A stretch of 18,288 bases of DNA from Candidatus Rifleibacteriota bacterium (GCA_051747585.1 JBNJGH010000051.1:1-18288), one strand, 5' to 3'; positions 6,061 through 18,245 are shown, counted from the first letter of the stretch. Made by a program: numbers and translations. The notes: generated by a model from the sequence alone, not told the origin.

Positions 6061-6095
6061 CAAACCGTTTCAACTTTTTAAGTTGAAACGGTTTG
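6061..6095. terminator. Perfect 16-bp inverted repeat between convergent genes, likely bidirectional terminator
   Basis: CAAACCGTTTCAACTT-TTT-AAGTTGAAACGGTTTG, 5 nt past the stop of 6101..6658. Confidence 0.75.
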
Positions 6096-6100
6096 TTGTT

Positions 6101-6658
6101 TTAGTAAAGATACAAAAGACCGCAACCAAGCTCTGGCTTTTGCCCTAAGGGTTTTAAGGTTAAAGCTTCGAGCTGATCTGGTGATTGGATTGCTAAAGTC
6201 CCTGAGAGAGTTATGGTTTGCTGCGAATAATTTTTATCATTTTCAATGTAGTAAATACAGTTGTCAGGGCCATGTTTAACTTCTCGTATCTCGGCGGCGT
6301 CTTTCAGCTGTTTCGCAAACCATGAGCAAACAGAATCGAAATTTTTGACCGGGTCGAAGTTTTTGTTTCTATTCGGGACCAGAAATATCGAAAACCTTTT
6401 GCTCTCGCCTGGAGACAATTCGCTTTTGTCTTTTTTGCCGCTTTCAAACAACTGAAATTCTTTATTTACATGCATTTTGGGCGCTGTTTTTGAATAAACC
6501 AGAACTGGCACTACGACACCGATTTTGTACCACTCGAGACGATATAGATAGTCTTTGCCGGCTTGTGTCTCTTCCGGAAAATATCCGGAAATAGCACGGT
6601 TTATATCTGGTGGATTGTATATCTTTTGTCTGTTTAACAGGAATTTACTTACATACAT
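6101..6658 (-). CDS. cas6e: Orphan Cas6e/Cse3/CasE-like RAMP protein, probably nuclease-inactive
   Basis: Collinear similarity to E. coli CasE as I recall it: MYVSK/MYLSK, YFPEETQAGKDYLYRLE/LFPNRPDAARDFLFHVE, VLVYS..P/VLLQS..P, WFAKQLKDAAEI/WLQRKLGNAARV, QTITLSGTLAIQSP/QTVCFEGVLTINDA, LGQKPELGCGLLYL/IGPAKSMGCGLLSL. Confidence 0.8.
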   Translation of the reverse strand: MYVSKFLLNRQKIYNPPDINRAISGYFPEETQAGKDYLYRLEWYKIGVVVPVLVYSKTAPKMHVNKEFQLFESGKKDKSELSPGESKRFSIFLVPNRNKNFDPVKNFDSVCSWFAKQLKDAAEIREVKHGPDNCIYYIENDKNYSQQTITLSGTLAIQSPDQLEALTLKPLGQKPELGCGLLYLY

Positions 6659-6684
6659 ATTTGTTATTAATCTTTGTTTATTAA

Positions 6685-7773
6685 TTAGATAATCGACGCA
6701 TCGGTTTCTCGTTCAACCTGAGTCTGAGAATCAAAATCCATTTTACCTTTGTCTTTGTCAGATTTTTTAGCCATTTTATTTTTAATAAATATGAAAGCCA
6801 TTACAGCTACAGGTAGTATATAGAACCACAGGAAAAAAGACCCGGTGTCGGTTATTCCGGCGGGTGTTGATTCCGGGGCCCAGCGTAAGCGATCAATATT
6901 GAAAAGTATACAGATAATCGAGGTCCAGACGAAAAAGAAATTTGGAATAGCGTCTGAAGCACTCATAAGGCCAAGACCGTCGGTTCTATCTTTGGTAAAG
7001 GGGTAAAAAAGATTGTTACCCATAAAGCCAAGCGAGTCTTCGATAATGTGAACCATAGAACCAAACAATATAATTAACGGGTATAAAAGCCAACGCGGCA
7101 AAGTATACATCTCGGGGTTCGGCCCTTCAGCTACGGTAAAGAAGGTAATAAGACCGACGATAAAAGAAATAAGAAGCCCTAGAGTAAAGCTGTGTGACCA
7201 GGTTCGGTGCCAGGGTAGAAAAACAATTTCAATTTTACCGTTATCTCTTTTTACAAACTCAAAGCAAGGTCCGGACATAATGGATATCGATGATTTTTTG
7301 TCGAATTTCTGAAAAAATTCACAATCGACTTTTACCCGTGCTTTTGCTTTTTCGGGATCCTTTAATTCAGTTCCGATAAACGGGGTTTGCCCGGTATCAA
7401 CCAGTGGGCCAATTTCGACCACAACTTCGCTGGTAGAAGAATCAAACCAGAGATCGTAGCTGCGCCATAAATTTGAGCCAAGCTGCATAGTATGAAGCTG
7501 AACCGTACCACGCCCTTCTTTGTTGGCTTTTTCAACTGCTTTGGCAACCGTGTTGGCAATCACCCGCGCATCGAGATTGTCTGGATCGGGATGCACTTCA
7601 AAGTCTGATTTATGAAAATAGCGGGCGAATTTAAAATCTAAAGTATCGGGAAGAATTCCAAAAATTCCTCCGAGACATAGAATGAATGATTGCTCTTGAG
7701 AGGCCATGTGAACGGCCTGCGGAAAGAAACTGGCAACTGCAATGCCACTTATAAAATGTGTAAAACCTTTCAT
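6685..7773 (-). CDS. Membrane-bound metal-dependent hydrolase (YdjM/DUF457-like) with a large soluble insertion
   Basis: Family motifs MKGFTH, GILPDTLD, HRTWSHS and HIIED..G...FYPF. Several transmembrane segments. Confidence 0.85.
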   Translation of the reverse strand: MKGFTHFISGIAVASFFPQAVHMASQEQSFILCLGGIFGILPDTLDFKFARYFHKSDFEVHPDPDNLDARVIANTVAKAVEKANKEGRGTVQLHTMQLGSNLWRSYDLWFDSSTSEVVVEIGPLVDTGQTPFIGTELKDPEKAKARVKVDCEFFQKFDKKSSISIMSGPCFEFVKRDNGKIEIVFLPWHRTWSHSFTLGLLISFIVGLITFFTVAEGPNPEMYTLPRWLLYPLIILFGSMVHIIEDSLGFMGNNLFYPFTKDRTDGLGLMSASDAIPNFFFVWTSIICILFNIDRLRWAPESTPAGITDTGSFFLWFYILPVAVMAFIFIKNKMAKKSDKDKGKMDFDSQTQVERETDASII

Positions 7774-7774
7774 A

Positions 7775-9121
7775 TTATATTAACCCCAGAAATCTTAAAA
7801 CTTCGTTACCGTAACCGGCCATGTTTAAACAGATAGGCATTAACAAAACGCCCATTAAATTCATTCTTCTTGCCTGAAATAGAACAGGTAAAAGGCCGAT
7901 TCCGGTTGCTACCGCCATTATTGCCATACCACCAAGACCGGTAAAGCTGTAGATAGCCGGCACGATTAATAGCAGCGCTATAACTGAAACCCAGTGATAA
8001 TCTATTTTTTCGACAAGTCTCATGCACCATCTGGTAAATGGTAGAAGAAGCAGAAACGAAAGACCGGCTGCAAAAAGCATTATGGTAACAAAAAGAAAAT
8101 ATTCTTTTAAAGTCAGAACCGAAACAACCGGTGTTACAATCCAGGCCAGACCACCTCTGGTTAAGCTGAGTCCTGGAACAAAGAAAAACAGAAAGGAGCC
8201 AACATAGTAAACTGTTTTACAGGTTCCATAAGACATAACAAACAGACGACTGTCTCGCTGGGCTGTGGCATGTCCGGCCATCAGTCCACCAACACCGGCG
8301 GTTACAATGGGAACAAAAGCAGCGACGAAACCGCCGAGAAAACCACCCAGTGTGCCTCTTGTAAATAATGCCCAGTCAAGTTCTATTGATTCGGCAACAT
8401 GCTGAGGAGGAACTTTGCCTATGTTAATCAGATTGGTAATCAACCAGGGTATTGCAAATAAACCGACAAAAACCGGGGTGATGCTTTGAAAGGCAAAGTC
8501 TAAGGGTACCATTGTTCTTGTTAAAACAATAAACCCGAGAATTCCGGATAAAACAAAGGTAATAATACCGACTGACAGGAATTTCCAGCCTTCAAAAAAG
8601 TTTGTCCAGCAGCTTTTTGATTGACTTACTCCTTTGGGCCATTCAGACAATATCATGTAAGAAATTACTGCCCCTAGAATCCAGAAGATGTGGGGGCTGG
8701 TAATTGTTTTTAAAGCGGGCATAATGTGAATAAAAGCTGGAGCAAGAACTGCAAGAAGGATCAAGCCACCGATTGAACCAACTCCGGTTAAAATTACTGA
8801 TTCGTAGCCTCGTCCTTTAGCAACCCAGGCTGCGCTTGGAAGTACATAGTAAGATATGCTTTCGTCACCGGGACCAAAATAAGTGGCCGGAACAGTGTTC
8901 AAAATTGAATAACCAACAACCATGCCGATACAAACAGCAATTAACTGCATTGGGTCCATGCTGTCCTGAAATTTTAAAACGAACATAAGAAAAATACCGA
9001 CAACGTTGTAGATATGCAAAGCTGGTAAAAAGGAAATTAACATCGAAAAGAGAACACCAAGAGAGCTGAAATAAAAAAGATCCAGATACTGAGGATTAAG
9101 AATAGTTTCCAGTATTGTCAT
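7775..9121 (-). CDS. TctA/DUF112-family permease, archaeal-like subtype
   Basis: Highly hydrophobic 448-aa protein with motifs FLPALHIYN, NTVPATYFGPGDE, VLP......GRGYE and PVFVGLFAIP. Confidence 0.85.
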   Translation of the reverse strand: MTILETILNPQYLDLFYFSSLGVLFSMLISFLPALHIYNVVGIFLMFVLKFQDSMDPMQLIAVCIGMVVGYSILNTVPATYFGPGDESISYYVLPSAAWVAKGRGYESVILTGVGSIGGLILLAVLAPAFIHIMPALKTITSPHIFWILGAVISYMILSEWPKGVSQSKSCWTNFFEGWKFLSVGIITFVLSGILGFIVLTRTMVPLDFAFQSITPVFVGLFAIPWLITNLINIGKVPPQHVAESIELDWALFTRGTLGGFLGGFVAAFVPIVTAGVGGLMAGHATAQRDSRLFVMSYGTCKTVYYVGSFLFFFVPGLSLTRGGLAWIVTPVVSVLTLKEYFLFVTIMLFAAGLSFLLLLPFTRWCMRLVEKIDYHWVSVIALLLIVPAIYSFTGLGGMAIMAVATGIGLLPVLFQARRMNLMGVLLMPICLNMAGYGNEVLRFLGLI

Positions 9122-10164
9122 GAATCATCTCCTGAAATTTCGCTCTCCTGAGCTGATTCAGAGGCGGTATTTACAGTTGATGCTTTATTCGTGGTGCTTT
9201 CTTTAATTGTCGAGCTAACTTTTTCTGTTGCAGAGCTAACCTTTTCGGTTGTGGTTGCATTTTCAGAATTGCCTGTTTTTGACTCTGAGTAATCCTGGGT
9301 ATCATTATTTTCAATTTCGACTCTGGAAATAACTTCAACCGCTTTTTTGCGCAGAACTTTTATCTCAAGGTCATCTTTAAAAGTTTCCACTTTGCCGACT
9401 ACGCTTATGAGATCGCCGGGATTTAATTCGAAGTTCCAGTCCAGATATTTTTTGTCTATCCAAACAGGCAGGCCGAATTTTTTGCCGTTATCAAGATTTA
9501 TTATCATGCCGGAATCAAAACTTTTAGTGCTTAATACGCTACCGGTAGTTTTTACAAAAGTGTTAAGATGTTTGTGTGCCAGCTTTTCGGGCGCAACACT
9601 TTTTATAACATCCGGTTCTTCATTTACTCTTTTTATGTAATGAAGATGCTCATGTGCGTTTATCAATAAGCTGGGTTCGTCTTTGCTGAAGCGAACCTGA
9701 CCTTCTACCGAAACTATGTCGCCTTTAACGGGAACCAGATTACTTTCCTCTATAGCCTCAGCGACCTTGGAATAAGCAGACACTCTTATGGTTTTTTCTT
9801 CGTCTCCCTCGTCGCCCTGAGAGATTATAAAATAAAGAGAACCCCATTTTTTATGGATGCCAAAGCTTTTATCTACTCTACCCTGAACTCTAACATGGGC
9901 AAAATTGCTTAAAGGGCCAAGATCACCTATTTTTACCAGTGGCGTCTGTACACTTTTTGCGTAAAAAAGCAGCAATATAAGACCAACGGTTGAGGTCAAA
10001 ATAGCAATGACTTTAAAAGCTCTAACTGAAAGGCGTTTTCCTACCAGTGCCTGACAGTATGGACAGCGCGTATAAACCCCGGTAAAGCGTCCGCAGCTGG
10101 GACAATGGGTTTCTTTGTGATAACGTTCATCCTGTTTTGTTTGTGTCTCTTTTTCCTTTTCCAT
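9118..10164 (-). CDS. Membrane-anchored protein: N-terminal Zn ribbon, one TM helix, two OB-fold-like domains, Ser/Thr-rich tail
   Basis: CPSCG...CPYC and TM VIAILTSTVGLILLLFYA. OB-fold signatures VRVQGRV...KGDIVSVEGQV and VKTTGSV...PGDLISVVGKVETFKDDLEI. Overlaps the permease gene by 4 bp (ATGA). CGAGGAAG RBS. Confidence 0.85.
   Translation of the reverse strand: MEKEKETQTKQDERYHKETHCPSCGRFTGVYTRCPYCQALVGKRLSVRAFKVIAILTSTVGLILLLFYAKSVQTPLVKIGDLGPLSNFAHVRVQGRVDKSFGIHKKWGSLYFIISQGDEGDEEKTIRVSAYSKVAEAIEESNLVPVKGDIVSVEGQVRFSKDEPSLLINAHEHLHYIKRVNEEPDVIKSVAPEKLAHKHLNTFVKTTGSVLSTKSFDSGMIINLDNGKKFGLPVWIDKKYLDWNFELNPGDLISVVGKVETFKDDLEIKVLRKKAVEVISRVEIENNDTQDYSESKTGNSENATTTEKVSSATEKVSSTIKESTTNKASTVNTASESAQESEISGDDS
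9212..9253 (-). repeat. Imperfect 21-bp tandem duplication in coding sequence (TEKVSS repeat)
   Basis: GAGCTAACTTTTTCTGTTGCA followed by GAGCTAACCTTTTCGGTTGTG. Confidence 0.7.
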
Positions 10165-10179
10165 ACTTCCTCGTTTAAT

Positions 10180-12084
10180 TTAGAATGCTGTTTTTAAAAC
10201 CTTTTCAAGGTGTCTTACAACTTTTTGGGGGTAGTGGGGCGGTATAATCTGTGGAAAAGCAATTACCACAGCTGTTGCCCCGGTATGTGAAATTTCGTAA
10301 TCGCTGCCCGCCATAACCTTAAGTTTAACCGGGTGTTCAGAATTTTTAAGACTGAATGCAAGACTGTCTGCAATAAACTTTCCTTTGCCGCCGCGATGAT
10401 AATGTCTTGCATTGATTGTGCCGCAATTTTCTCTTTTAAAAGATAAAATCAGATCAAAATCATCTGCAAGATTTGCTTCGAGAACCGCTTGATATTCGGG
10501 ATGTCTCATAGTTTCAGGCATTGAAAGTCTGGCGACTTTTGCTCCTGCTTCAGTCAGAGCAGACTCAAACTCTTTTAGTAGATTTCCAAAACTTCGTGGA
10601 GCCAGAATGCCGATTTTTTTTCCTAACAATCTCTGTGAAACCGGCGTTAACCTGATATTTTTGAAGCTTACCGGCTCACCTTTTGTTTTTATCCAGCTGG
10701 TGGTTTTCTTGTATCCGGCAGGAGGAATAATTTTCAGGTGTAGATTTTCATAAACCATTGGATATTCAAGATAAAAATAACCTCCAACTGCTGTTTTTAT
10801 CTTTTTAAGGCCATAATCAAGTTCAACGCCTTTCAGCCCTTTGCCTGAGCGATCTGTGACTTTTCCAATAACAAATCGATTCACAGGTTCTTTAACTTTG
10901 ATCCATTTATTTTCGATTATTTGACTGTCGTGAACCAGTCTGATCTCCAGAGAACCTCTTTCTTTTCCGGTTAAATCAAGCAAGGCCAGCGATTGACCAT
11001 CTTCATTTGTATTCAGAATTGTTTCGCCTTGATCACCATAGCAAACGGCGATAGATGTCGATCTGGTATTTAAGCTACCTTCGCTGTCATGCAAATCGAT
11101 CTGAACCGGAAACTTGCCTTTGAAACCTTCAGGAATAAATGGAGCGACAGGCTTGATAGCACCGCCGGCCAGGGGTAATTCTATCTTTATTGGCAGGTTG
11201 ATTTTGGGGGAAACCGTGCCGTCATTAGCCTGAAAGGTTAGTTTTAAATTATAGGTTCCACTTTGAAGTGATTCGGTGTTGTAAAGGCGATAAGTGTTAC
11301 TGACCGTGGGTAGCAGGTCGAAGCCAAAGCTGGTGTTTGAATTTGCCATTCTGGCTTTTAATTTTGCAATCGGTTTGTTTGCGGTAAAAATAAAGTTAAA
11401 AAAGGGCGTATTAATTTCTACGGGCTGGTCTGCAACCAGAAATTTTATTTTTAAAGGGCCTTTGGAAAAGGTTTTGCGAATAGCTCTTCTCAATGCTTCT
11501 GCCTGATTGGTGAGCTCTTTTCCTGTTTTCAGTCCTTTTTCAATTTCCGGAATAGAAATGTAACTTCCTTCAGTCAATATGGCCGGAGCTTCGTTATTTC
11601 TCAATACAAAGAATCCACCCGGAACAATAATGGAGTTCTGGCCAAAGCCATGACTTTTTAGTTTATCAAACATATCCGTGCCCGCTGTTTTGCTAAGGCC
11701 GGAATCAAGGGCATTGTAGTAAATTTCGCTACGGTTTTTTTTGCGTGGCGTAATAGAGGCGTTATGATGAATAGAAACAAAAAGGTCTGGCTTTAGTTGT
11801 CGGGCTTTTTGTACCCTCTGACTGAGAGAAAGATATTTATCCGTATCTCTGGTCATAAATACTTCCGCTCCATCTGCCTGCAGAAGCATTTTTAAATAAC
11901 GGGCTACCCTTAAATTCGTTTCCGATTCTTTTAAGCCCGTAGGGCCTACTGCACCAGGATCTGCTCCACCATGTCCGGGGTCGAGTAAAATTCTAACTCC
12001 TTTTAATGGATTAAGGACAAGAGCAGAAGCACTGGCAGAGACCAGCAAAAAAATAAACAAAAATACGAATTTGTTTCTCTTCAT
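10180..12084 (-). CDS. Secreted N-acetylmuramoyl-L-alanine amidase (Amidase_3) with beta-rich middle domains and a degenerate second amidase-like domain
   Basis: Signal peptide. Catalytic motifs ILLDPGHGGADPGA, KESETNL, MTRDTD, FVSIHHNA and VLRNNEAPAILTE. Confidence 0.93.
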   Translation of the reverse strand: MKRNKFVFLFIFLLVSASASALVLNPLKGVRILLDPGHGGADPGAVGPTGLKESETNLRVARYLKMLLQADGAEVFMTRDTDKYLSLSQRVQKARQLKPDLFVSIHHNASITPRKKNRSEIYYNALDSGLSKTAGTDMFDKLKSHGFGQNSIIVPGGFFVLRNNEAPAILTEGSYISIPEIEKGLKTGKELTNQAEALRRAIRKTFSKGPLKIKFLVADQPVEINTPFFNFIFTANKPIAKLKARMANSNTSFGFDLLPTVSNTYRLYNTESLQSGTYNLKLTFQANDGTVSPKINLPIKIELPLAGGAIKPVAPFIPEGFKGKFPVQIDLHDSEGSLNTRSTSIAVCYGDQGETILNTNEDGQSLALLDLTGKERGSLEIRLVHDSQIIENKWIKVKEPVNRFVIGKVTDRSGKGLKGVELDYGLKKIKTAVGGYFYLEYPMVYENLHLKIIPPAGYKKTTSWIKTKGEPVSFKNIRLTPVSQRLLGKKIGILAPRSFGNLLKEFESALTEAGAKVARLSMPETMRHPEYQAVLEANLADDFDLILSFKRENCGTINARHYHRGGKGKFIADSLAFSLKNSEHPVKLKVMAGSDYEISHTGATAVVIAFPQIIPPHYPQKVVRHLEKVLKTAF

Positions 12085-12090
12085 GCTGTC

Positions 12091-12118
12091 ATATTATCAC
12101 ATGATCTGGGATGGTCAA
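12091..12118 (-). promoter_or_regulatory. Putative sigma70 promoter, possibly leaderless start of the amidase operon
   Basis: Minus strand TTGACC-N16-TAATAT-N6-ATG, with an overlapping TGTGATAAT. No Shine-Dalgarno visible. Confidence 0.5.
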
Positions 12119-12125
12119 GCAATTA

Positions 12126-12150
12126 GAAAAGAATTGAGCTAATATTTCCA
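12126..12150 (+). repeat. 25-bp direct repeat, copy 1
   Basis: GAAAAGAATTGAGCTAATATTTCCA is identical to 12331-12355. Confidence 0.95.
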
Positions 12151-12330
12151 TTTGTTTGTAAAAAACTGTTTCAAGACATTTAGATTGCTTCGCTTTGCTC
12201 GCAATGACAGCCCCACATTGTCATTGCGAGGAGCATAGCGACGAAGCAATCTTTAATCATCTAAGATTTATTAATCATAAAAAAATAAAATGTCATGAAA
12301 CGCGCTAATAATATTAAATGGAGAACGACT
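12146..12330 (-). mobile_element. Non-autonomous MITE/REP-like element, copy A
   Basis: Subterminal IR GTTTCAAGACATTT (12168-12181) / AAATGTCATGAAAC (12288-12301). Inner arms AGATTGCTTCG...CTCGCAATGAC and GTCATTGCGAG...CGAAGCAATCT. End-to-end similar to the reverse complement of 17938-18245. Confidence 0.8.
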
Positions 12331-12355
12331 GAAAAGAATTGAGCTAATATTTCCA
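12331..12355 (+). repeat. 25-bp direct repeat, copy 2 (overlaps the stop codon of the J-domain gene)
   Basis: Identical to 12126-12150. It contains the reverse complement of TGG AAA TAT TAG (W-K-Y-stop). Confidence 0.95.
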
Positions 12356-13255
12356 GTTCATTTTTTCGGCAAGTTCTTTAAAAGCCTCTTCCTGCTCTGG
12401 CTTTAAGTCTTTTGGAATAATCACTTCAAGTTTAACCAGTAAGTCTCCACCAAGTCCCTGACCACGCATTCGCAAGACATGACCGCTTTGGCTGCCTGAA
12501 GGAACGGTGAGTATAAAATCTTCACCGCGGGGGCTTTTCAGCTTGATTTTGCTTCCCAGGACTGCCTGGGCCAGATTAATGCTGATAGTGGTTTCAATAT
12601 TTTTTCCTTTTATTTTAAAAGGATGCTCGTCTTCAATATTTATTTTAAGGCTGAAATCGCCCTGATAGGTTTTTACTTTAAGTACTTTATGGTTGGGCGT
12701 TTCCGGGGGGATGGTTACGTTCTGGGTGCCGCCCGGTAGTCCGGTAACCGATATCTTGCCACCTTTTATTGCGGTAGAGAGTGGTATTTTAAGAGTGGCG
12801 TCGGCTTGTTGTCCACCGCCACGCTGAGCCCTGCCTCCGCCAAAAAGGTTTTCAAAATTGCCAAAGGGCGAGCCGGAGGTTCTGGTTGTTCGGCTTGTTC
12901 TGCCACCGGAACTGAAGCCGCCAAAACTTCTCAGTATCTCTTCAAACATATCGGCACCGCCGGCTGAACCGGAACCCGAAGATGAATAAAAAAAGTCTCC
13001 GAAGGGCCCTTCTTTGGAAAAGCCTTCAAAATTGTATGAACCACGGCCTGTTCGTGCGCCATCATATTTTTTACGCTCTTTATCGCGACTCAATACCTCG
13101 TAAGCTTCTGATATTTCTTTGAATTTTTCTTCTGCTTTTTTGTTTCCTTTATTGATGTCGGGATGATACTTTTTAGCCAGCTTTTTAAAGGCTTTTTTTA
13201 TATCTTCTTTGCTGGCACCCTCGGAAACACCAAGTATTTTATAGTAGTCTTTCAT
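12344..13255 (-). CDS. cbpA: DnaJ class B / CbpA-like co-chaperone
   Basis: J domain KDYYKILGV...KKYHPD...[12 protein letters not shown], a G/F-rich region, no CxxCxGxG zinc finger, and a DnaJ C-terminal domain ([13 protein letters not shown]). Confidence 0.9.
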
Positions 13256-13436: not shown

Positions 13437-15275
13437 ATGTATACGGTAAAAAGATTTTTAACACTGTTTATTCTGGGGATGGCAATTATAGCTGCACCAG
13501 GTATGACAGCACAGCAGCAGGCTTGGTATGATGCCACTCATATTTTTGAAGAAGATGTTGATAAGCTTGTTAAAAACGTAAAACTTGAAACTAAAGTAGA
13601 AAGAGCAAAAAGAGTAAAAGCTCCATTACCGGAAAAAAGAAATTATAAAGTCGGAGACGTAGAAACTTTCTGGACTAAAAATATTGTCGAAAATAAATTT
13701 GAACAGACTAAAGCCGAACTTAAAGCTATTGGCAAACACTGCTACATTTTTGTAGAACAGGGAAAAAGTCTTTCGGATGAAGTGTTTGAAAATGTTCGCA
13801 AACAGTTTGATGAGGTAATTTATCCTACTAACACCTCAACCTTTGGGTTTGAATGGAAACCAGGCATTGATGGTGACGAAAGAATTACTCTGTTAATGTT
13901 TGATATTAAAGATGGCTTTGACGGCACAGGTGGGTTTGTCGGTGGTTATTTCTTCGCCGGTGATCAGTTCTTGAATTCACAGATTCCACCTAGTTACAAT
14001 ATAAAATCTAACGAACGCGAAATGTTCTATCTCGATATTAACCCTTCAGACCCAACCAAAGATCATTACATGTCTATAGTAGCGCATGAATTTCAGCACA
14101 TGATTCATTTTGCCCACGATTCAAAAGAAACTACCTGGGTTAACGAAGCCTGTTCTCAGATTGCCCCTTACCTTTGCGGTTTCGGGCATGCAAATCAAAT
14201 TGTTTCATATATGAAAACACCTGATAACAGTTTGACTGCATGGGCAGAGGACCAAATGGTAGCTAATTACGGTCAGGTATATCTTTGGAACTACTACATC
14301 TACAACCGTTTTCTCGCTAACGATAACAGTCGCAAGGATTTCTTCAAAAAGCTGGTTGACTCTAAACAAAAGGGTATTAACGGTTATGTAGAGGCTTTTA
14401 AAGCCCTGGATGTAACTTTTGACGAAATGTTCGAAAGATTTGCAGTTACTAATTTTATTAACAATCCTGAGCTTGGTAAGAAAAATGAGTATGGTTATGA
14501 CAAAAGTCTCGGTCGCTTGAAACTGCCGGTAAGTGAAACAGTTAAAGCTATCCCTGCTGAGATTGAAGGCGAAGTATTGTTCTGGAGTGCTGATGCAATC
14601 AAAGTTGATCTTGCCAATGCCAAATCTAAAGTTGATATAAGCTTTTCGGCTCCAATGCACAGTCTTGATGCAAGTCATTTTAATACATTTTCTGTAGCTG
14701 TAATAGAGAAAAATTCCAGAGATAAAGTAACTCCTAAAATCACATACATTGATGTTAAACAAAATGCATCTGAAAAAATTCAAGCTGGAAAAGTGACAAT
14801 TGTTCCTACCAAGGAATATGACACTGCTATGATTGTTGTTATTGGAACTGCTCCTGAAGAAGCTGATGAAAATATCTACAAAAAAGCAAAAGCAGTAGGC
14901 TACAGCGTCTCAGTCAAGGATGCCGGTCAGACTGTAAGCAGGATGGTCGCAAGTGCAGATGCAAATGAGATGGTAAAAGATTACGCACGTTTTGCAGTCA
15001 GCGATAGCGAATCGAATGAATCAGCCATGATGATTCGTTTTAACAACCTTGAAACCATTAGTTTTGAGCTTTCCAGAAAAGTGAAAAACGATCTCGACGC
15101 AGGTAATCTTGAAAGTCTCGATACAATTATTGACCAGGCTTCAACTGGAAAAATTGAACTGGAAAGCATCAGACCCCTTATAAATAAAGTTCTTGGTGTT
15201 GCTGAATTTAAAGCTAATCAGGAAAGTGATAATTTCGAACTTGAACAAAGAATTAAAACTCTGAAGAGCTTCTAG
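13437..15275 (+). CDS. Secreted zinc metallopeptidase (gluzincin, M30/hyicolysin-like)
   Basis: Signal peptide and AGGAG RBS. AHEFQHMIH followed by WVNEACS. Upstream PGIDGDERI, GGYF and SNEREMFYL motifs. Confidence 0.88.
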   Translation: MYTVKRFLTLFILGMAIIAAPGMTAQQQAWYDATHIFEEDVDKLVKNVKLETKVERAKRVKAPLPEKRNYKVGDVETFWTKNIVENKFEQTKAELKAIGKHCYIFVEQGKSLSDEVFENVRKQFDEVIYPTNTSTFGFEWKPGIDGDERITLLMFDIKDGFDGTGGFVGGYFFAGDQFLNSQIPPSYNIKSNEREMFYLDINPSDPTKDHYMSIVAHEFQHMIHFAHDSKETTWVNEACSQIAPYLCGFGHANQIVSYMKTPDNSLTAWAEDQMVANYGQVYLWNYYIYNRFLANDNSRKDFFKKLVDSKQKGINGYVEAFKALDVTFDEMFERFAVTNFINNPELGKKNEYGYDKSLGRLKLPVSETVKAIPAEIEGEVLFWSADAIKVDLANAKSKVDISFSAPMHSLDASHFNTFSVAVIEKNSRDKVTPKITYIDVKQNASEKIQAGKVTIVPTKEYDTAMIVVIGTAPEEADENIYKKAKAVGYSVSVKDAGQTVSRMVASADANEMVKDYARFAVSDSESNESAMMIRFNNLETISFELSRKVKNDLDAGNLESLDTIIDQASTGKIELESIRPLINKVLGVAEFKANQESDNFELEQRIKTLKSF

Positions 15276-17937: not shown

Positions 17938-18245
17938 AGTTGTTATCCACTTAGTAATATTAGTAGGTTTCAAGACATTTTTGTTTTTTTTAAATATTAA
18001 AATTTAGAATATTAAAGATTGCTTCTTCGCGATGCTCCTCGCAATGACAATTTGGGACTGTCATTATATATTGGTCATTGAGCGTAGTCGAAATGACCAA
18101 TGGATGGTTACAGGGTCCCTTCGACTACGCTCAGGGACCGCTTAGGGGGTCATTGCGAGGAGTTCTGCGTAGCTTTATGCGAAGCAGAACGACGAAGCAA
18201 TCTAAATGTCTTGAAACGGTTATTACAAACAAATGGAGAATTACT
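17938..18245 (+). mobile_element. Non-autonomous MITE/REP-like element, copy B, with nested insertions
   Basis: Imperfect terminal IR AGTTGTTATCCACTT / AAATGGAGAATTACT. Perfect 14-bp subterminal IR GTTTCAAGACATTT (17967-17980) / AAATGTCTTGAAAC (18204-18217). Same inner arms as copy A. Confidence 0.8.
18066..18148. repeat. Nested REP-like pair of the TGAGCGTAGTCGAA / TTCGACTACGCTCA type
   Basis: Hairpins at 18070-18101 and 18114-18139 have mutually complementary 14-nt cores. The segment is flanked by GTCATT at 18060-18065 and 18149-18154 and is absent from copy A. Confidence 0.8.

Follow-up and report, generated by a model that had tools for sequence, protein, structure and literature searches.

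This report concerns five genes that lie between positions 6,101 and 12,084 of an 18,288-nucleotide stretch of DNA from Candidatus Rifleibacteriota bacterium (GCA_051747585.1 JBNJGH010000051.1:1-18288), the whole of which is referred to here as the window. A sequence-only reading had joined all five into a system for the uptake and handling of nucleic acids. The real unit is likely to be smaller, namely a three-gene inner-membrane module whose products form one complex, and it encompasses an OB-fold protein, a TctA-like protein and a YdjM-like putative hydrolase. The module is tentatively read below as a device for the capture and import of nucleic acid. The amidase gene that precedes these three genes is a lineage-specific neighbor, and the Cas6e-like gene that follows them is probably also a neighbor and no component. 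The five open reading frames (ORFs), with the module given first, are as follows.

9118 to 10164, minus strand: OB-fold protein of 348 amino acids, with a zinc ribbon, a transmembrane segment and OB folds
7775 to 9121, minus strand: TctA-like protein of 448 amino acids, PF01970
6685 to 7773, minus strand: YdjM-like protein of 362 amino acids, PF04307
10180 to 12084, minus strand: amidase of 634 amino acids, Amidase_3
6101 to 6658, minus strand: Cas6e-like protein of 185 amino acids, PF08798

The window corresponds to contig C51 of a metagenome-assembled genome (MAG) of 4.1 Mb, which consists of 330 contigs and is 93.6% complete, and all of the loci with which it was compared are likewise derived from MAGs. 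Its closest relatives, at the level of both protein and locus, carry Candidatus Riflebacteria names and belong to an Ozemobacteraceae-like family. Read from the amidase to the Cas6e-like gene, the ORF listing gives spacings of 15, -4, 1 and 26 nucleotides between the five minus-strand ORFs, in agreement with the gaps and common orientation described in the sequence-only reading, and each of its five domain calls also lies above the curated Pfam cut-off.

Conservation of the trio was followed through 80 bacterial loci, which were fetched by alignment to TctA and in which the partner genes were sought by tblastn with the window's proteins; with this one set of queries, divergent OB and YdjM genes are undercounted. 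Family loci, in which TctA is at least 65% identical, number 32, other loci number 48, and the denominators given here are the loci with room for the gene in question. Upstream of TctA, 23/23 family loci and 31/43 of the others have an OB gene; downstream of TctA, a YdjM-like gene is found in 27/27 and 21/42, respectively. The order OB-TctA-YdjM is present in Riflebacteria families f1 and f3 to f8, as well as in loci titled Muiribacteria, Verrucomicrobia/Lentisphaerae, Brocadiia and Spirochaetes, and is partly kept in loci titled Anaerolineae/Thermoflexia. Outside the window's own family it is only this run, from the OB gene through the TctA-like to the YdjM-like gene, that recurs in other Riflebacteria families and in other phyla. 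A Pfam scan of 75 neighboring ORFs from nine non-family loci revealed no further partner that recurs across phyla, the exception being a GNAT gene ahead of the OB gene in two Anaerolineae; MltG/YceG, FtsH and glycosyltransferases are among these neighbors, and none of them recurs. The gene neighborhood thus bears out the earlier proposal of a conserved unit for the OB, TctA-like and YdjM-like core, which is kept across phyla, but not for the amidase and Cas6e-like genes, which are not linked to it beyond the family.

The distribution of the three genes within the phylum also follows a common pattern. In a survey of 87 genomes, TctA was found in 65, a match to the YdjM-like profile in 67 and a match to the OB profile in 64, with each of the three present in 41 of the 44 high-quality genomes. 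Family f2, represented by 10 genomes, has TctA in 0/10, YdjM in 0/10 and OB in 1/10, the last being a weak generic match, and in family f10 all three genes are missing except in a single genome, G073. TctA and YdjM are found together in 63 of the genomes and neither is found in 18, which leaves two genomes with TctA only and four with YdjM only; five of these six discordant genomes are just 66-89% complete. As related genomes are not independent, the pattern is to be understood as two or three joint losses, and no statistic is attached to it. The three genes are also tightly packed in the window, where the OB and TctA-like genes share 4 nucleotides and a single nucleotide parts the TctA-like from the YdjM-like gene. 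In G073, an in-frame ORF of 857 amino acids fuses an OB-like N-terminal half (tblastn 6e-10, OB profile 3e-20) to a TctA domain, for which the Pfam match covers residues 423-831. This fusion is a single case, and a dedicated search for longer, fused TctA forms, itself weak evidence, returned none.

The YdjM-like protein matches PF04307 (DUF457) with 55.3 bits (cut-off 29) and harbors an inserted soluble domain of around 140 amino acids. In 35 sequences drawn from several phyla, seven residues never vary, namely H6, D43, D46, H189, H194, H242 and D246. The structure model (mean predicted local distance difference test score, pLDDT, of 86.4 and predicted template modeling score of 0.80) contains helices at residues 2-26, 31-53, 196-213, 227-248, 275-296 and 310-341, followed by a basic C-terminal tail, and under the positive-inside rule this arrangement would place both the inserted domain (residues 56-186) and the seven invariant His and Asp residues at the cytoplasmic face of the membrane. 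In its Pfam match and conserved His/Asp set the protein resembles E. coli YdjM, from which it differs in the inserted domain and in the pairing of its gene with one for a TctA-like protein. E. coli ydjM is regulated by LexA. No solved relative was found by a profile search of the PDB, a Foldseek search of the PDB with the model gave no match at E <= 0.001, and a wider structural search with the model gave matches at the level of helices alone (Z <= 6.8).

That the TctA-like and YdjM-like proteins bind each other is supported by complex prediction, a check that had been proposed for pairs of the five proteins and was run on this pair. The predicted complex has a score of 0.81, compared to 0.00 for the best of three controls, and passes a mark that was reached by 116/157 solved complexes and by 2/215 mismatched pairs, counts that apply roughly here, the present prediction having used its own alignments. 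At least 77% of the contacts agree between runs, and the pLDDT of the partners is at least 75. The predicted interface brings the invariant YdjM residues K2, G3, T44, F47 and G168 against the invariant TctA motifs E160-K163 and H284-T286; as a whole it is formed by residues 135-182 and 281-289 of TctA and residues 2-55, 166-168 and 273-308 of YdjM. Since neither TctA nor YdjM has a solved relative, the high score is not the recall of a known complex.

The first protein of the module matches PF01336 (tRNA_anti-codon) with 30.5 bits (cut-off 27) and is built from a zinc ribbon, a single transmembrane helix, two OB folds and a tail rich in Ser, Thr and Glu. The ribbon cysteines, C21, C24, C34 and C37, are invariant in alignments of 50 and of 31 homologues. 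Hydropathy reveals one transmembrane segment, residues 49-67, preceded by 10 Lys and Arg residues; on the basis of these positive charges and the Ser/Thr/Glu-rich tail, the ribbon is predicted to be cytoplasmic and the OB folds, in an ectodomain of roughly residues 70-290, extracytoplasmic. In a profile search of the PDB the best solved relatives are archaeal RPA32 (2.3e-6), followed by STN1, RPA, YhaM and PolC, all of which are OB folds that bind DNA or RNA. The number of OB copies varies widely within the family, from one to many, and two tandem OB genes are present in several families. Some of the OB relatives have weak matches to DUF4131, the OB domain of ComEC, at around 26 bits (cut-off 31.6), and DUF4131 also appears in the precomputed domain lists of many of them. 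No archaeal names are found among the best 120 of 381 matches to the OB profile, where those with a name are Chloroflexi/Anaerolineae, and two look-ups of OB-family clusters likewise gave no archaeal members, returning fragments, bacterial names and one record from a tick genome.

The TctA-like protein is a stand-alone polytopic membrane protein and the sole TctA match in the window's genome. It matches PF01970 (formerly DUF112) with 113.5 bits (cut-off 28.9), over profile positions 4-422 of 423, and its identity within the family is 69-84%. Judged by its sequence, it is very divergent from classical TctA. A profile search of the PDB found no solved relative, and Foldseek with the model found no PDB match at E <= 0.001. 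The nearest Atlas clusters (0.96-0.97) are rich in Methanobacteriota and Thermoplasmatota, which serves as a lead only.

A precedent for the pairing of the first two proteins comes from the archaea. In Methanococcus maripaludis, the adjacent genes MMJJ_13020, encoding an OB-fold protein with one transmembrane segment, and MMJJ_13030, encoding a TctA-like protein that has 11 of them, are reported to be individually essential for natural transformation, which was lost on in-frame deletion and regained on complementation, and a TctA-like homologue in Methanoculleus thermophilus is reported as essential too (Fonseca 2023, PMC10133366). The authors of that work propose that the OB/TctA-like pair is the archaeal DNA transporter (PMC10133366). 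As described there, the archaeal pair shares with the window an adjacent gene for a single-transmembrane OB protein followed by a stand-alone TctA-like gene, with no TctB or TctC partners. It differs in that it is presented as two genes, the consulted portions of the paper making no mention of a YdjM-type hydrolase, whereas the trio of the window is bacterial, has a third partner and occurs alongside ComEC. Our literature search found nothing on a trio of OB, TctA-like and YdjM proteins, and a connection between TctA-like proteins and transformation is made only in this paper and its preprint. What the present analysis adds is the phyletic pattern within the Riflebacteria with its joint losses, the OB-TctA fusion, the TctA-YdjM model, the coexistence with ComEC and the exclusion of the amidase and the Cas6e-like protein. 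To our knowledge, the archaeal DNA transporter has not been established, and the OB protein and the TctA-like protein are the sole genetic candidates for it.

Because the archaeal pair is essential for transformation, a nucleic-acid reading of the core is a reasonable one, and we lean towards it, at somewhat short of even confidence: the trio may be a device for the capture and import of nucleic acid, or of another polyanion, which follows a logic like that of ComEC. The OB folds would lie on the periplasmic side and bind DNA or RNA outside the membrane, the TctA-like protein would act as the conduit inward, and the metal site of YdjM, at the cytoplasmic face beside the invariant TctA motifs, would cut or trim the incoming material. 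An order in which membrane hydrolysis takes place outside, as had been proposed, is not the likeliest, since the prediction puts the metal site on the cytoplasmic side. In this scheme the module would be a functional analogue of ComEC and the bacterial counterpart of the archaeal OB/TctA-like transformation pair. With ComEC it has in common an OB fold that faces outward, a polytopic protein as the conduit and a metal hydrolase, a likeness of parts that is an analogy and confers no membership, for the trio is without the Competence (PF03772) and metallo-beta-lactamase domains and is made up of three proteins as opposed to one; PF03772 was matched by none of the five window proteins in the Pfam search. 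Of the sequence-only proposal of a nucleic-acid system, then, the core unit stands and has a published uptake precedent, whereas the amidase and the Cas6e-like gene fall outside the module.

A number of observations count against nucleic-acid import. The likeness to MMJJ_13020 and MMJJ_13030 is one of described architecture and may not extend to homology, and the archaeal transformation phenotype could be indirect. TctA-family proteins of known function carry small carboxylates. The only structural neighbor of the TctA model to stand out is barley Yellow Stripe 1 (YS1; 7wsr_A, OPT family), with Z 11.9, a root-mean-square deviation of 6.3, 299 aligned residues and a Foldseek probability of 0.80, the next neighbor having Z 6.7, and this protein is a secondary transporter and no channel. 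Nor does the classical DNA-uptake route show a gap for the trio to fill: the window's genome has DprA, eight secretins and ComEC genes (three Competence-domain matches, on contigs C183 and C208), and 50/50 family genomes, as well as 194/201 of all genomes searched, contain ComEC. The suggestion that carriers of the operon might lack comEC consequently fails, and the trio does not replace ComEC, which all of the family genomes retain. Among non-family loci, YdjM is not directly downstream of TctA in 21/42 and OB is not upstream in 12/43. Furthermore, TctA and YdjM are 64-87% identical in comparisons where their neighbors are 37-69% identical, which fits a housekeeping role, and the near-universality and very high conservation of the trio suit housekeeping at least as well as uptake. 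As an aside on the ComEC genes, one of the Competence matches lies within an open frame of 979 amino acids that was matched in two pieces.

These same features lend themselves to the view that the trio is an atypical solute importer, with the TctA-like protein as the secondary carrier of a small anion, the tethered OB array standing in for TctB and TctC as a receptor or scaffold, and YdjM modifying the cargo or regulating the carrier. The Pfam TctA match is full length, as would be expected of such a carrier, the best structural neighbor is a secondary transporter, the stand-alone archaeal TctA (arCOG04469) has been guessed to be a carboxylate transporter (Makarova et al. 2015, PMC5898192), and a near-universal, strongly conserved, single-copy TctA is what a core nutrient route would display. 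The TctABC systems of Salmonella and Corynebacterium have a large subunit in the same Pfam family; the window's protein departs from them in having an OB protein and a hydrolase beside it, not TctB and TctC. A search for TctC (PF03401) in the 93.6%-complete genome gave no match, with positive controls, TctB not having been searched, and this bears on the earlier remark that the permease might prove to be a citrate transporter served by tctB and tctC elsewhere. Moreover, OB folds that belong to the nucleic-acid-binding type and differ in number, as these do, would be unusual for a receptor of small solutes, tblastn against plasmids found no classical plasmid-borne TctA at E 1e-10, and the archaeal pair has, as reported, a transformation phenotype. 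With these points taken together we regard solute import as rather unlikely. Separately, the match to Yellow Stripe 1 raises the possibility that the TctA and OPT folds are distantly linked.

Should the trio be the counterpart of the archaeal pair, work on mechanism would gain many more sequences and a conserved hydrolase partner, a bacterial route of uptake or scavenging beside ComEC would be suggested, and the stand-alone branch of TctA and DUF457 would acquire a function. Should it prove to be a solute carrier, the finding would be ordinary. A bolder version of nucleic-acid import holds that the trio is a second, ComEC-independent importer present in many uncultured bacterial phyla and sharing ancestry with the archaeal transporter, in which a periplasmic OB array reels in the DNA or RNA, TctA conducts it and a docked YdjM at the inner face cuts or degrades a strand of it, with a nuclease-dead Cas6e recruited as the receiver in the Ozemobacteraceae; this we would put forward as speculation, and think it improbable in its entirety.

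The amidase matches PF01520 (Amidase_3) with 134.7 bits against a cut-off of 27, over residues 32-203 and profile positions 1-173 of 174. It has an N-terminal hydrophobic segment resembling a signal peptide (residues 6-24) and a C-terminal extension of around 400 amino acids, and from its sequence it is assigned as a secreted N-acetylmuramoyl-L-alanine amidase. The gene lies directly ahead of OB in 19/19 loci of the family and in 0/31 elsewhere, and in one family genome (G020, locus L064) it lies downstream of YdjM. Synteny in the family extends over the genes for a 612-amino-acid protein, DnaJ, the amidase, OB, TctA, YdjM, in some cases the Cas6e-like protein, and an opposite-strand TPR protein. 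Adjacency within the family therefore carries little weight, given that the DnaJ, 612-amino-acid and TPR genes are equally syntenic. The amidase may well be co-transcribed with the trio in this genome, but it is tied to the trio by family synteny alone and is a lineage-specific neighbor, not a part of the module as had been supposed.

The amidase adjacency would acquire a meaning if the trio had a housekeeping role in the envelope, for instance by exporting or processing a component that is polymeric or linked to lipid. Such a role would sit well with the presence of each trio gene in 41/44 high-quality genomes, with strong purifying selection, with the amidase adjoining in every one of the 19 family loci and with the occurrence of MltG/YceG, FtsH and glycosyltransferases among the neighbors in other phyla. 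That none of these neighbors recurs, that the amidase link is 0/31 outside the family, that the 10 genomes of family f2 live without the trio and that the OB folds belong to the nucleic-acid type all speak to the contrary, and an envelope role is to our minds an unlikely account.

The last gene of the run matches PF08798 (CRISPR_assoc) with 37.7 bits against a cut-off of 25 and falls under the NCBI Cas6e cut-off (TIGR01907, 29.1 against 45.2). The profile of its family aligns at full length with E. coli CasE (4qyz_K) at 9.7e-14, and the protein retains the C-terminal G-rich loop, ELGCGLL. Full-length homology and the G-rich loop are thus shared with the type I-E Cas6e/CasE proteins (E. coli 4qyz_K, T. 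thermophilus 1wj9). The window's protein is set apart from these by its sub-threshold TIGR01907 score, by the lack of any Cas1, Cas7e or array found, and by Asn20 at the position of CasE His20, which we take to be the catalytic residue of the E. coli enzyme. The column is occupied by H, N, S, Q, F, Y, K or R across 35 members of the family. Cas1 and Cas7e were not found in the 330-contig MAG, and a script found no array of clustered regularly interspaced short palindromic repeats (CRISPR) there, only five short tandem repeats, although arrays may have gone unassembled. The sequence evidence suggests that the protein is probably an exapted, nuclease-dead RNA-binding member of the repeat-associated mysterious protein fold, and a neighbor of the trio as opposed to a component. 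All of the 50 Cas6e-like relatives found that bear a name are Riflebacteria. This solo family, a separate small curiosity in which a CRISPR nuclease fold has been kept without CRISPR, also has strongly conserved motifs, namely LNRQ near the N-terminus, YRLEWY, GPNN and ELGCGLL.

The association of the Cas6e-like gene with the trio is loose. It was found in 11/41 relatives, and in 14/25 family loci (directly adjacent in 10) and 0/32 other loci. An opposite-strand gene lies between YdjM and the Cas6e-like gene in G001, G002, G003, G005 and G014, that is, in four species of the same genus and G014, and in G023 the Cas6e-like gene stands amid unrelated genes. Its place as part of the system is for these reasons not sustained. 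The intervening gene encodes a protein of 220-270 amino acids with no Pfam family (L012 3372-4025, plus strand; L013 10045-10857, minus strand; equivalents in G001, G002 and G005), which was not found in the window's genome.

It is against these data that the proposal of a single five-gene uptake system has to be set, in which the amidase opens the wall, the OB protein captures the nucleic acid, TctA forms the channel, hydrolysis takes place at the membrane and the Cas6e-like protein is the cytoplasmic binder. The tight, one-strand spacing with a single terminator in the window is what such a system would show, 19/19 family loci have the amidase alongside and 10/25 have the Cas6e-like gene immediately adjacent, and pieces of OB, YdjM and the Cas6e-like gene are represented in two metatranscriptome runs, where carry-over of DNA is possible. 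Outside the family the amidase link is 0/31 and the Cas6e-like link 0/32, the Cas6e-like gene was not found in 30/41 relatives, a gene on the opposite strand comes between it and YdjM in four relatives of the same genus and in G014, its location in G023 is a different one, and the DnaJ, 612-amino-acid and TPR genes are as syntenic in the family as the proposed members. A system of all five genes is accordingly very improbable.

The transcript matches just mentioned come from contigs of the two metatranscriptome runs, two DNA runs also having been compared with the window, and cover positions 6223-6465 of the Cas6e-like gene, 7302-7508 of YdjM and 9163-9390 of OB, with 0-1 mismatches. No RNA contig from these runs spans a gene junction, the uncovered parts being uninformative. 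Two signals had been described at the ends of the run.

6061 to 6095, no strand assigned: terminator-like hairpin with a 16-bp stem and a 3-nucleotide loop, followed by a run of T
12091 to 12118, minus strand: promoter-like TTGACC-16-TAATAT, matching 9/12 consensus positions

The hairpin is present as claimed and is the top terminator-like site in the window; it lies between convergent genes and is common to both. The possibility that it represents a conserved RNA site behind Cas6e-like genes was ruled out, because the sequences of the hairpins behind the relatives' genes differ from one another, and it is taken as an ordinary terminator. An Rfam search of the window matched no family. The promoter-like motif does exist at the head of the run (12118-12091) but such motifs are no commoner than in shuffled sequence, 15 having been found in the window against 16.1 +/- 4.2 expected. 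Given this shuffle-level frequency, and a -10 hexamer that ends just 6 nucleotides ahead of the amidase ATG, the motif is weak evidence for an operon head.

Several further features of the region deserve mention. A divergent version of the trio, with a TctA 38-39% identical where 70-84% is otherwise seen, is found in four genomes of the same family (G007, locus L059 on C103; G020, locus L064 on C20; G008; and G042). It occupies the same chromosomal place, between the DnaJ and TPR genes, and looks like an in-place replacement by a distant homologue. The 612-amino-acid protein (13437-15275, plus strand) has a weak match to an MXAN_6640-type HExxH metalloprotease (NCBIfam, 39.1 against a cut-off of 140); in the family its gene keeps a syntenic position upstream of DnaJ, and tandem duplicates are present in several relatives.

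Between the DnaJ and amidase genes, at 12131-12370, lies an inverted-repeat element of around 110 nucleotides, which resembles a miniature inverted-repeat transposable element or a repetitive extragenic palindrome and is flanked by a direct duplication of 25 nucleotides (12126-12150 and 12331-12355). As the distance between DnaJ and the amidase gene in relatives is around 55-260 nucleotides, the element may have broken up an earlier transcript that ran from DnaJ into the amidase gene. It has around 170 blastn matches on 85 contigs of the window's genome, with copies in the window that include 18011-18065 and 18193-18237, and its 35-nucleotide core (12218-12252) reaches a depth of hundreds to thousands in all four of the metagenome and metatranscriptome runs, compared to around 5 in the flanks.

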